A DNA stretch of 37,867 nucleotides. It comes from a virus. Lineage: Duplodnaviria; Caudoviricetes. Of this stretch, positions 27,816 to 31,362 are shown piece by piece (within the stretch, counting starts at the first letter, position 1; every line of letters starts with the position of its first letter). The DNA is taken from IMG/VR virus record IMGVR_UViG_3300020044_006136, positions 1 to 37,867 of that record; one strand, 5' to 3'. The translations under genes and the position numbers were made by a program. Under the pieces are notes generated by a model that did no database searches, was not told the origin of the DNA, and saw nothing but the letters and a program-made list of their open reading frames with translations.

Positions 27816-27916
27816 TGCGGGGTCAAGCCGCACAAAAAGTCTAACTTTGGGGACGCGCTCCTCAAGAAAGGGCCGAATGTGCTACTTGACCTAGCCTTCG
27901 GCCCTTTGCTTTTTCT
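27816..27916 (+). promoter_or_regulatory. Two-hairpin leader with complementary loops; the second hairpin is terminator-like
   Basis: Loop GGTCAAG (27821-27827) is complementary to loop CTTGACC (27885-27891); 11-bp stem followed by a U-rich tract. Confidence 0.6.
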
Positions 27917-27920
27917 TGGT

Positions 27921-28260
27921 TCTCGCGGGGTTGAAGTTCATAGGAACTAAGCGTGTAACCTACGGTATTCGCGAACGGCGAACCGATATTAGGTGAAGGT
28001 GCGGTCCCCGAGGCTAACAGGCGAGAGCCTGAATCGTAGGGGTATCAAAGTGACGCGAAAGCGTGATTCACCGGCAAACTACGAGAAGCAGTTTAGGGTA
28101 GGAGGCACAAGCCGCAACCCGAGGCCGGAAAAGCGAGACACGAAGACTGCTTCATGCGCTGCTTAACAATCCCTGATGGCAGGGATTACTGCGTCCACTC
28201 GCCTACTTCATGCGACGTGCTCAACGCATCCATCCGCAATGGATCGAAAAAACTGCTTAA
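27921..28260 (+). ncRNA. Candidate large structured ncRNA
   Basis: No ORF in the track; multiple nested stems, two GNRA tetraloops, possible pseudoknots. Confidence 0.5.
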
Positions 28261-28422
28261 TCACGAAGTGAAAACCACTAGAAACTCGGGCCAATGCGGG
28301 AAAGCTAATTGCCGCAAATCGCCTTAAGGGAGTGATTTACTGATGCCCCGAAAAAAGTTGAAGAAAAGAATTGATGCCCATAGGAAATTCTGAATGATAG
28401 CGGCAGATAGGGAAAACAAAAT

Positions 28423-28674
28423 ATGAATACAACACTAGAACAAATAAACATAGTTCCGAGCTACGAAAAAATTCAGGCTATGCCCGAACATCAAGCGAAG
28501 GCAGAACTCTATCGGATGCAGAGCATCGCAGGCAGTTTGGCCTACGAACTCTATCTGATCACAAAATACGGCCCACCGCCCACTCCTAAAACAGAAGTCA
28601 TTGACGACCTGTTTAAGCGTTACGCTAAGGCGTCAGAGACAACCGGAAACGTCTATTCCCCAGAAACCAAATGA
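28423..28674 (+). CDS. Hypothetical protein
   Basis: 83 aa; first gene of a coupled operon. Confidence 0.65.
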   Translation: MNTTLEQINIVPSYEKIQAMPEHQAKAELYRMQSIAGSLAYELYLITKYGPPPTPKTEVIDDLFKRYAKASETTGNVYSPETK

Positions 28675-29273
28675 GCACCGCACAAGTAACCGAGGCGCAC
28701 CGGAAACTCGCCGACGAAATCATTTTCGCAACCGACTACTGCTCCGTGTCACCGCAGGCCGCTGCCAAACTCATCGCCGACAGCGAGGCGCGGGCGGTGT
28801 TGAAGGAAACCGGCTACCTCAAGGCGATGGTGCAGGACGGCACGAACGCGATGAAAGAGCGCGACCAGCTCCGCGCCGAGGTGGGGTGGTGGAAGAATCA
28901 GCACGCCGAGAATCAGGAGCTGGAGGACGCGATAGCGGCCAAGGTCAAAGGCACCATAGACGCCCTCCGCGCAGAGGTGGAGCGGTTGAAGGCGGACGGA
29001 GCTGCAAGTGCGTTCATTGATATGTCTTGCCGTGCATCGCACGCCGAGGCCGAACTCGCTACAGCCAAAGAACGTCTGCGCAGCGAGGCGATGGACGATT
29101 ATTCTTCAATTAAAAACTTGCAACGCGAACTCGCCGCCGAGCGGGCGCGGTTGGATTGGCTGGAAAAGCGTGCGCCGAAATGCTGGGGCCTGATTGATGC
29201 GCAGATGCTCGCGGGGAAAACGGAAACCATCCGCGCCGCCATCGACGCGGCGATGAAGGAGGCCGCGAAATGA
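28671..29273 (+). CDS. Coiled-coil modular hypothetical protein (Ead/Ea22-like)
   Basis: ERDQLRAEV and RLDWLE...IRAAIDAAM modules; ATGA overlaps. Confidence 0.65.
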   Translation: MSTAQVTEAHRKLADEIIFATDYCSVSPQAAAKLIADSEARAVLKETGYLKAMVQDGTNAMKERDQLRAEVGWWKNQHAENQELEDAIAAKVKGTIDALRAEVERLKADGAASAFIDMSCRASHAEAELATAKERLRSEAMDDYSSIKNLQRELAAERARLDWLEKRAPKCWGLIDAQMLAGKTETIRAAIDAAMKEAAK

Positions 29274-29896
29274 AACACTTAAACTTAACTCCAAAAGAAT
29301 TTTGCTCCGCAATGGACGCCTGCACCGAAGGACGTATGTTTTCCGAGAAATATAACACGATGGCAGAAGTCTGGGATGCGTGCCCGAGAGCTGATTGGCT
29401 GCTCTGGATTTTAACCGCAATCGACGCTCCGGTCAGTGACAAGACCGAGCGACTTTTTGCGGTTTGGTGCGCTCGTAACACTCCGATGCACAACGGACGC
29501 ACGACTGGCGCATTGCTCACCGATCCGCGCAGTATCTCGGCCCTTGAGGTTGCCGAGCGATTTGCACATGGGAATGCAACTACAGAGGAACTGGCTGTGG
29601 CATGGGCTGCGGCACGGGCTGCGGCACGGGCTGCGGCACGGGCTGCGGCAGCGGATGCGGCACGGGATGCGGCATGGGCTGCGGCAGGGGCTGCGGCACG
29701 GGCTGCGGCAGCGGATGCGGCACGGGATGCGGCATGGGCTGCGGCAGGGGCTGCGGCACGGTATGCGGCAGCGGATGCGGCATGGGCTGCGGCACGGTAT
29801 GCGGCATGGGCTGCGGCAGGGGATGCGGCATGGGCTGCTCAGGCAAATCAACTCCGCACAATGGTCAGTAATCCATTCGAGGAGGGCACCAAATGA
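29270..29896 (+). CDS. Ala-rich WAAARDAA-repeat protein
   Basis: [10 protein letters not shown]-terminal domain followed by 12-nt tandem repeats at about 29598-29838. Confidence 0.75.
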
Positions 29897-30249
29897 GCGC
29901 GCCCATCACCGAGGCGCACCTACGCCTAGCCAATCAACTCGTCGCATCTCCACCGTCTCCTCTCGTGATGGCAACGCTCATCGCCGACAGCGAGGCGGAG
30001 GCGGTGCAAATCGCCATGCTCCGAGAATACGGCAACCTCTCTGCAACGAACGAGTCGCTCGCTAAGGAGCGCGACCAGCTCCGCGCCGAGGTGCAAGCGC
30101 AATGCCTCCTTAACGCGAAAGGCTCGGAGCGTGAGGCTATTCTGCTTGGGAGGCTGGCGCGTGCAGAGCGGAAAATTGTGATGCTCCGCGCCGCGAACGT
30201 CGTGCGTGAGCCATCCCGGACTCACGATGTAAAACAACCAGAAACCTGA
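29893..30249 (+). CDS. Modular hypothetical protein (paralog of 28671..29273); 3' end lies in attC-like site 1
   Basis: Shares TEAH, LIADSEA and KERDQLRAEV blocks. Confidence 0.65.
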   Translation: MSAPITEAHLRLANQLVASPPSPLVMATLIADSEAEAVQIAMLREYGNLSATNESLAKERDQLRAEVQAQCLLNAKGSEREAILLGRLARAERKIVMLRAANVVREPSRTHDVKQPET

Positions 30250-30300
30250 ACGAATAAAGTGCAGCGGCCAACCGGGATTGGCACGACGCACTTGTTAGGC
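30192..30300 (-). mobile_element. attC-like recombination site 1 (109 bp)
   Basis: Plus strand CGCGAAC-6-CGTGAGC-CATCCCGG...CCGGGAT(T)G-GCAC(G)ACG-5-GTTAGGC; extrahelical G30285 and T30279. Confidence 0.75.
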
Positions 30301-30310
30301 AGCACGGTCT

Positions 30311-30541
30311 ATGAAAACAAAACCAATGATAACAGAAACAGTGACACTTTCTTTTGAAGTGAAGCTCGACTACCAAAACGATGCGGGCCGGGCGTGGCTC
30401 GTAAAATCTCTCAAGCGTGATGCTCGCGTGGATATGGGTGGCGCTGGCGTGGACACCGGGCCATACGGAATGAAATCAATCGAAGGCTCGGCGCGAGTGC
30501 TGCCTAACACCACGATGAGCCAACCCGGAGGACAATCATGA
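30311..30541 (+). CDS. Cassette 1 ORF, hypothetical
   Basis: 76 aa; reads through CCT-AAC (Pro-Asn) into attC-like site 2 and stops there. Confidence 0.6.
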   Translation: MKTKPMITETVTLSFEVKLDYQNDAGRAWLVKSLKRDARVDMGGAGVDTGPYGMKSIEGSARVLPNTTMSQPGGQS

Positions 30542-30608
30542 GCGCACCACAGACCGAAGCGCCAACGGACGGAGCAACGTCCGGATTGGCTCTGGCACCT
30601 TGTTCGGC
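30502..30608 (-). mobile_element. attC-like recombination site 2 (107 bp)
   Basis: GCCTAAC-5-GATGAGC-CAACCCGGA...TCCGGATTG-GCTCTGGC-5-GTTCGGC; arms align with site 1. Confidence 0.7.
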
Positions 30609-30849
30609 ACGACCCGATTTTAAGGCCAAACTTAGAACGCTGGCCTCTTGGTTGGCTAAAAGAGCGGAGGGAAATCACAACGAGCTGACCACACGCTCAA
30701 TGCTGCGCCGCAAGGTGGATGAGCTGATGAATGCCAAAGCGCCTAGCTGCGAATACTGCAATGGGTCCGGCGTTGTCGCTTACGAAGCCGGCGGAGAGTC
30801 GCGACTTGATGAGTGCGGGTGCCAGCAAAAGCCGAACAAAGGAATATGA
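30538..30849 (+). CDS. Cassette 2 ORF with CxxCxGxG...CxC zinc-finger-like motif
   Basis: GGAGG SD and ATG lie inside attC-like site 2; ends ...KPNKGI through GCCGAAC. Confidence 0.6.
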   Translation: MSAPQTEAPTDGATSGLALAPCSARPDFKAKLRTLASWLAKRAEGNHNELTTRSMLRRKVDELMNAKAPSCEYCNGSGVVAYEAGGESRLDECGCQQKPNKGI

Positions 30850-30940
30850 CAACTTGCACCCCATGAGCATTCCTTATTACGTTCCACCGAAAATACAAAA
30901 AAGCATTGAACAAACAAAATAAACCTGAATGATGAAAACG

Positions 30941-31075
30941 ATGACAAATGAACTAAAAGAAACGCTAGACTGCATTAAACAACTACTGGCTCGATTTCCC
31001 GCTCCCGATTGTCGTGAGCAGGAAGAGGCAGTCCAAAACGCCAAGGCAATCCTTGCGCGGGAAGGAAAGCCATGA
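30941..31075 (+). CDS. Hypothetical protein (44 aa)
   Basis: MTNELKETLDC...; ATGA overlap with the next gene. Confidence 0.5.
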   Translation: MTNELKETLDCIKQLLARFPAPDCREQEEAVQNAKAILAREGKP

Positions 31076-31362
31076 TTGATGTATCGCTAACAATGCAGTC
31101 AGTCCGGTGGATGTTTGAGAAGCATCTCAAGAACATTGACCTATCAATTCCCGCCATCCCCATAAAGGAGACCAAGGACTATCTGCACCGCAAAAAGATT
31201 ACGGATGAAACAGTTTTTGCCATCCGAGCAGACGCCCAGCGTGGCATGAAAATCCGAGAATTGGCCGAGAAATATGCGGTCAGCCAAACCGTAGCCCACA
31301 AAATCAAGCACTATCAGCACCGTTTTTCCAAGGGCAAGTTTGCCCGGAATCCACAACAATGA
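31072..31362 (+). CDS. HTH DNA-binding protein
   Basis: IRELAEKYAVSQTVAHKI. Confidence 0.65.
   Translation: MIDVSLTMQSVRWMFEKHLKNIDLSIPAIPIKETKDYLHRKKITDETVFAIRADAQRGMKIRELAEKYAVSQTVAHKIKHYQHRFSKGKFARNPQQ

Follow-up and report, generated by a model that had tools for sequence, protein, structure and literature searches.

An apparently reversed gene-cassette array in the early region of a tailed phage and the reading frame at its junctions

Integrons are usually seen as bacterial devices in which strand choice keeps the cassettes pointing one way. Clusters of attC sites lacking an integrase (CALINs) have been published for phages (Qi et al. 2023; PMC9892861). The phage attC sites work with IntI1, with the bottom strand preferred, and the arrays were called typical of bacterial cassette arrays, with divergent sites in one phage; the main text of that report contains no passage on translation or start codons (PMC9892861). 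In class 1 integrons, ORF-11 and ORF-18 of attI1 and short attC ORFs are described, an ORF that crosses the recombination point obtains its stop from the incoming cassette, termination-reinitiation helps the next gene, and attC hairpins impede ribosomes unless they are translated through (PMC8876359). An attC site is defined by inverted R boxes with AAC/GTT, spacers of 5–6 nt, L boxes of 7 and 8 nt and a length of 57–141 bp, and the arm facing AAC carries its extrahelical bases, usually G16 and T23/24, at a distance of 6 bp from each other (PMC5027507).

Here, we describe an array of attC-like sites in a complete phage genome. With moderate confidence, we read it as an integrase-less integron that runs backward within an early operon, was likely loaded by a host IntI, and has likely kept a reading-frame convention that gives clean gene ends and no fusions.

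Genome context and layout of the array

The window, i.e., the whole stretch of DNA analyzed (37,867 nt), carries a 121-nt terminal repeat, indicating a complete tailed phage (completeness class, 100%), and encodes terminase, major head, DnaB-like helicase, Erf-like, and exonuclease proteins according to PHROGs. The cassette array lies among the small genes of the rightward early region. No phage integrase was found, either by a PF00589 search of the complete genome or by PHROGs among its 48 ORFs, and five further phage records with arrays (three of them at least 90% complete) likewise gave no PF00589 match. BLAST of 30100–30950 against annotated phages gave no match, and Rfam returned no family at its gathering score. 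A dicodon model ranked the annotated frame first of six for all three junction genes, with small margins for the cassette genes. The array is a CALIN in the sense of Qi et al. (at least two attC sites within 3 kb, no integrase), as called by a register scan written for this analysis rather than by IntegronFinder or HattCI. Its features, with one gene further downstream, are as follows.

29893..30249, plus strand: gene 29893 (118 aa), a native early-operon gene of a coiled-coil-like phage family; the fixed left flank of the array
30192..30300, plus strand: site 1, attC, with the plus strand as its predicted recombining (bottom) strand; register score 13.5
30198..30507, plus strand: cassette 1 (310 bp), hairpin and then gene
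30311..30541, plus strand: cassette-1 gene (76 aa), no PHROG family
30502..30608, plus strand: site 2, attC, with the polarity of site 1 and an imperfect L box; register score 10.3
30508..30836, plus strand: cassette 2 (329 bp)
30538..30849, plus strand: cassette-2 gene (103 aa), two CxxC-like pairs, no PHROG family
30831..30889, minus strand: site 3, attI-like docking module of ~55 bp, with the minus strand as its conventional top strand
31359: gene for an Erf-like annealing protein (PHROGs)

Some further features lie near the array. The segment 27770–28430 (plus strand; core 27900–28330) is a long stretch without convincing ORFs, is 84–94% identical in related phages, and contains many GNRA-like hairpins. 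A consensus fold of five sequences has eight pairs changed on both sides, the single-sequence z is only -1.6, and Rfam gave no match; the segment is a candidate for a large structured RNA upstream of the early genes. The genes at 28671–29273 and 29893–30249 are paralogous coiled-coil-like early genes with short repeats in common, and such genes are N- and C-terminal mosaics across relatives (P0002–P0056), which is a second, homology-based layer of shuffling beside the cassettes. In addition, gene 29270 (phrog_18326) includes 12-nt tandem repeats at 29539–29874 (plus strand) that encode a tract rich in alanine (AAxAA).

Hairpins, crossover points, and the terminal module

A preliminary description, made from the sequence alone, had proposed three attC-like sites. 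Sites 1 and 2 indeed have the attC layout, with lengths of 109 and 107 bp and spacers of 6/5 and 5/5 nt, respectively; site 3 is read here as attI-like. The left arm of site 1 consists of AAC 30196–30198, a 6-nt spacer, and a 7-nt L box (30205–30211), and its right arm of an 8-nt L box (30281–30288), a 5-nt spacer, and GTT 30294–30296; the extra bases on the plus strand, G 30285 (position 16) and T 30278 (position 23), are 6 bp apart. The only extra base of site 2 is T 30593 (T16), a feature it shares with many others in its class, and its L box includes one mismatch and one G-T pair. In six Markov-resampled windows, no site reached a score of 12 and six sites reached 10, so site 2 taken alone is within chance; its putative assignment as attC rests on the 12-bp core complement and on homologues. 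This complement appears when cassette 1 is drawn as a circle, since its ends would pair as a 12-bp complementary core; the core of cassette 2 is 7 bp, and elsewhere the cores were complementary over at least 4 nt in 44 of 66 adjacent site pairs. Minimum-energy DNA folding gave the L stem for site 2 and competing local hairpins without an attC register for site 1, for which the long hairpin was obtained with RNA parameters. The 101-nt site-1 hairpin was present in six further viral loci (L008, L009, L010, L012, L014, and L015).

Because the extra bases sit on the arm opposite AAC (the 3' arm), the coding strand is predicted to be the bottom strand. It follows that the predicted crossover is AA^C before each hairpin and that a cassette consists of a hairpin and then a gene. 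The classical cassette order, with the gene on the top strand and attC after it, is not the one seen here; in this array, the hairpin comes first and the gene is encoded by the bottom strand. A GTG-started ORF of 32 codons (30259–30357, plus strand) begins in the site-1 loop, 9 nt past the stop, and extends across the 3' arm into an overlap with the cassette-1 gene; in L009, this frame leads on into the downstream gene. This ORF is possibly a leader or a relic start.

The predicted crossover at AAC on the coding strand was supported by comparing homologous loci, as the breakpoint fell at AAC in six of seven informative phage locus pairs. Four of these pairs had the hairpin and downstream flank in common but not the upstream flank, and two had the upstream flank only; in the remaining pair, from an array of near-identical hairpins, the upstream flank and hairpin were common but the downstream flank was not. 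Of the six loci with the site-1 hairpin, five begin to match at 30196 and the sixth 10 nt before that point. In L010, the hairpin and the 5' part of the cassette-1 gene (30196–30426, 92%) follow an upstream gene that differs from gene 29893 and ends at TAA(C); this copy diverges at 30426, so it bears on the left end of the cassette only. Conversely, contigs in runs X4/X5 matched gene 29893 up to 30202 and 30210 and then continued into other attC-like sequence. The proteins told the same story of tail exchange: P0007 and P0009/P0057 match gene 29893 as far as RAAN and then have different tails, and the Asn junction was kept in 2 of 55 non-self matches to gene 29893, the rest being without this end. 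Two of three homologues of the cassette-1 gene retain the PN junction and both homologues of the cassette-2 gene (P0060 and P0061) retain QQKPN, in each case with different tails. The site-2 sequence was matched in run X4 (record 11), and in L423/L424 the same site-2 hairpin start, with its Shine-Dalgarno (SD) sequence, ATG, and overlap, is set between other genes. The viral contig L052 (1059–3280) carries six nearly identical attC sites of 81 nt, with called genes pointing either way; it looks rather like part of a chromosomal array.

These breakpoints also bear on the idea that short-repeat recombination by the phage accounts for the mobility of the units, the attC likeness being a relic with no integrase at work. 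Six phage records without an integrase, the Erf-like gene at 31359, and flank genes that are mosaics joined at short repeats would all suit it. We nevertheless regard this as very improbable, given that the breakpoints are at AAC and not across the hairpin, that R-box complementarity is kept at the cassette ends, and that phage attC sites recombine with IntI1 (PMC9892861).

Site 3 has no arms in the attC register and no register score of 9 or more; a weak stem is shifted by 4 nt from that register. It combines a GTT crossover, a degenerate L box 5–6 nt away, a position at the array end, and different cassettes in different phages, as an attI site does. In L091, the array ends with a site-3 homologue, with ~45 nt of homology beginning at AAC, and in run X5 (record 16) 30829–30889 stands behind a different cassette end; in relatives, homology resumes at about 30886–30899. 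Eleven non-attC terminal junctions, including that of the window and chosen by a crude word filter, have an AT-rich box 5–6 nt after AAC. In the bacterial locus L300, a similar junction lies ~100 nt before an intI-like gene. The genes beside bacterial arrays that we take to be intI-like were assigned by a motif alone, and no junction as close was found at the four other intI-like loci, so that the attI reading has a single close bacterial look-alike. Together, the L091 homologue, the terminal junctions, the X5 match, and the L300 look-alike lead us to read site 3 as an attI-like module, the "-like" being used because no intI gene is adjacent (no PF00589 match in the genome). A broken attC, for which the ATG/TGA offsets fit one attC class, was considered and rejected, because the homologue ends the L091 array and the box is common to other terminal sites.

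Site 3 provides the plus-strand stop TGA 30847–30849, which overlaps just a 6-codon ORF. Deleting both cassettes in silico (639 bp) gave gene 29893 an LRAANKGI-stop ending, exactly as the preliminary description had calculated; its further expectation, that homologues in relatives would end in NKGI, failed in all 56 homologous proteins (0/56). We assign the NKGI tail to site 3 because the last cassette gene of L091 ends ...NKGISLPATHE. Searches for an empty-site allele, which can reveal presence but not absence, gave two chance matches in unrelated genes for the exact 19-nt downstream flank in viral contigs and seven unrelated matches for the upstream-flank pattern; 27 metagenome loci of the wider family had neither an NKGI end nor a scored attC, and four runs returned no joint spanning the array. 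Likewise, 18 loci of related phages had no well-formed array at this position, with two low-scoring scan hits (L163/L164). An empty allele follows logically from the frame rule and does not show that NKGI was ever the native end of the gene. Beyond the module, two tiny ORFs (6 and 19 codons; 30846–30922, plus strand) are chained through overlapping ATGA motifs, the chain finishing 6 nt short of ATG 30929, and the L091 homologue is without the stop of the first; they could be a ribosome relay or chance.

Reading frame, stops, and starts at the junctions

In the window, as first reported, three consecutive ORFs read the crossover AAC in frame 0 as Asn, namely AAC 30196 in 29893–30249, AAC 30506 in 30311–30541, and AAC 30835 in 30538–30849, and they stop 18, 12, and 5 codons later (stop included). 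Site 1 supplies the last 16 residues of gene 29893 and its stop (TGA 30247–30249), not the next start; the cassette-1 gene has its start at 30311, 15 nt beyond GTT and separated from the upstream stop by 61 nt. At the other end of this gene, the stop TGA 30539–30541 overlaps ATG 30538 in site 2, which contains GGAGG (30527–30531) and provides the opening 22 codons of the cassette-2 gene. The cassette-2 gene thus starts in site 2 and obtains its stop in site 3. Three of three junctions in frame would occur by chance about 1 time in 27, and this agreement is weak by itself; the weight is carried by other loci.

Two pattern scans of viral contigs gave at least 149 loci and at least 190 scored sites; 9 of the 15 loci from the first scan had no scored attC, and 54 of the 134 loci listed from the second have short flanks. 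For the frame test, we kept sites with a score of at least 11, 150 nt of flank, and distinct flanks, which left 136 among the matches listed, and called genes with our own dicodon model. Asn read-through was seen at 40 of these listed flanks, while 13 stopped at TAA(C), 13 stopped earlier, 2 crossed in frame 1, 4 crossed in frame 2, 8 had the gene on the opposite strand, and 56 were ambiguous and left out. The read-through frames were therefore 40:2:4 among the junctions listed, from 30, 2, and 4 loci, counts that are not fully independent because one sequence pattern drew the sample and cassettes share ancestry. Stricter cut-offs gave 24:2:2 and 16:2:2 among the junctions listed, and ordinary control AACs put through the same caller gave 98:91:57. 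When junctions with T before AAC were removed, making TAA impossible, frame 0 accounted for 30 of 35 listed read-throughs versus 11–13 expected from matched contexts in 566 long ORFs, and 0 of 200,000 context-matched simulations reached 30/35. The frame in homologous arrays is hence non-random, as the preliminary description had anticipated, but not always frame 0, as it had also supposed: of the 72 called same-strand genes listed, 26 end no later than the crossover and 6 cross it in another frame. Judged from these sequences, the junction frame among phage arrays is neither random nor fixed.

The hairpins supply stops mainly in this frame. An Asn-frame stop was present inside 121 of 129 distinct hairpins listed, versus 74.7 in loop shuffles (maximum 87), and in 49 of 52 loop families listed versus 31 shuffled; stops in the other two frames were inside 86 and 68 of the 129 listed hairpins (none in 43 and 61). 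With an Asn-frame stop in nearly every hairpin, an upstream ORF would still terminate correctly once cassettes were exchanged, and on this safety of upstream ORFs the preliminary description was right.

Starts were distributed less uniformly. Among the 129 downstream genes listed, 52 had an in-frame ATG inside the hairpin, in agreement with the proposal that starts sit there, but 32 started after the hairpin and GTT; 4 had no ATG near, 3 were on the opposite strand, and 38 were uncalled. Among the listed genes with a loop ATG (n = 48), an Asn-frame stop lay within -1 to +10 nt of the start in 31, compared with 7 and 4 for the other frames. Where the genes on both sides were called, 12 of 50 listed junctions were tight, every one of them after Asn read-through (12/29), and the other 38 showed no tight stop-start coupling. 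The geometry of the ORF-11 type fits site 2 and these 12 junctions.

The preliminary description went further and saw translational coupling built into the array, with an SD sequence and start inside the sites. In its strongest form, every site would be a full translation module (stop, SD, and start) that keeps coupling in any cassette order. Site 2 fits wholly and is conserved in this form in L423/L424, the overlap with an Asn-frame stop is an exact ATGA at 19 of 48 listed loop starts, a figure that drops to 3 and 4 in the other frames, and in silico loss of cassette 1 puts the stop of gene 29893 on ATG 30538. As a universal rule, however, it is contradicted by the tight junctions numbering 12 of 50 listed, by the 32 of 91 called downstream genes listed that start past GTT, by SD-like words preceding 7 of 48 listed loop starts, and by the 61 nt between stop and start at site 1; moreover, the site-2 SD was still paired when the 5' arm was freed in silico. 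We therefore hold this strong form to be improbable. Within the array, site 2 has a coupled geometry and site 1, whose next gene starts past GTT, does not, so the original claim stands for the former and not for the latter. Overall, the preliminary description was partly supported, having overstated coupling, the internal SD, and the empty allele. Stem melting as a means of freeing the site-2 SD received no support from static folding.

Bacterial control sites were collected with the same pattern from GTDB genomes (8 of 64 parts scanned). The matches were mostly from Verrucomicrobiota (52 of 80 listed loci by title, many overlapping), and the register scanner misses many bacterial sites (47 versus 278 by pattern), so results from both collections are given. 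Classical orientation was found at 106 of 108 called bacterial flanks, with 2 reversed and 69 uncalled, versus 3 of 60 called flanks among the matches listed in the viral pattern-anchored set. Before clustering, an Asn-frame stop was present in 61 of 75 bacterial hairpins versus 47 shuffled (maximum 58), an excess due to one large family; by family, the figures were 15 of 21 versus 12 shuffled (P 0.10). The classical orientation and the lack of a significant family-level bias in bacteria indicate that reversal and frame rule alike belong mainly to phages. The host of the phage is probably a member of Verrucomicrobiota, judging by attC class. A few hairpins with phage-type A-rich loops and an internal ATG occur in L314, L363, and L332 (Verrucomicrobiota-labelled or other bacterial contigs), representing either prophages or phage-format cassettes in host arrays.

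These controls help to judge whether the frame bias was selected or inherited, with new cassettes made from old ones keeping the founder's gene-end and start phases. Reuse of one hairpin before at least five different genes, exchange of hairpin-encoded N-termini with the frame kept (P0060 versus the window), and loop families common to cassettes all speak for inheritance. We consider inheritance unlikely, though a real competitor of selection: the family-level bias persists (49/52 listed) across loops less than 65% alike, the frame is obeyed by the flanking native gene as well as by the attI-like module, and bacterial loops of the same arm class lack a significant bias.

The backward integron that we favor would work as follows. 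A host IntI, probably from Verrucomicrobiota, would recombine the phage cassettes. In the sequences themselves, a cassette gene ends before the crossover, ends at a TAA on it, or crosses it as Asn; the Asn frame is closed inside nearly every hairpin, the other two often being open into the next gene, and where the next start is in the loop, the Asn-frame stop is usually beside it. The main force may be selection against run-on and fusion products. We infer selection for clean ends because frames 1 and 2 are the frames of the downstream genes and are often open through the hairpin. Translational coupling would be a real but optional second layer, at site 2 and about a quarter of junctions elsewhere.

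Relation to known systems

Phage attC clusters and att ORFs that aid translation are already known, whereas the reversed, frame-locked layout was not found in the literature covered, which included few subscription journals. More speculatively, and with less confidence than we give to the backward array itself, phages of Verrucomicrobiota may have their own mirror-image cassette standard and use the host integrase during infection to swap early genes among unrelated phages. Such a standard would include a portable attI module, hairpins serving as translation adaptors with a stop in one set frame and a start next to it, and genes cut to phase, much like exon phase in exon shuffling. If true, backward, frame-ruled cassettes would add a site-specific route to phage mosaicism, would explain many small phage proteins with hairpin-derived ends, and would imply that attC loops are able to acquire an additional role in signaling translation. 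The array is a small test set for these ideas, with one coupled site, one uncoupled site, and one docking site that is found with other cassettes.

The chromosomal integrons of Verrucomicrobiota resemble the phage array in their attC arm sequences and have intI-like genes beside the arrays at five loci, but they show the classical orientation (106/108 called) and no significant frame bias at the family level. The published phage CALINs share at least two attC sites, cassette-sized genes, and the lack of an integrase with the present array, which differs from them, as described in the main text, in its bottom-strand genes, its hairpin-first cassettes, its attI-like module, and its frame rule (PMC9892861). 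Insertion by IntI at attG, short GWT sites outside integrons (bioRxiv 10.1101/2022.09.11.507474), could by analogy have seeded the array in a phage gene; site 3, a module of ~55 bp that also occurs in another phage and has been found with other cassettes, is no part of the native flank and is more like attI than a chance attG. ORF-11 and ORF-18 are alike in that an ORF spans the crossover and takes its stop from the incoming cassette, but in that case a single platform peptide lies on the top strand before the first cassette (PMC8876359), whereas here cargo genes on the bottom strand cross every junction and the attC loop often contains the gene's own start. Finally, in gcuF1-blaOXA-28, as here, a cassette ORF reads through an attC site; in that case, the result is an in-frame fusion that lowers expression (PMC3375312), an outcome that the phage convention appears to avoid.
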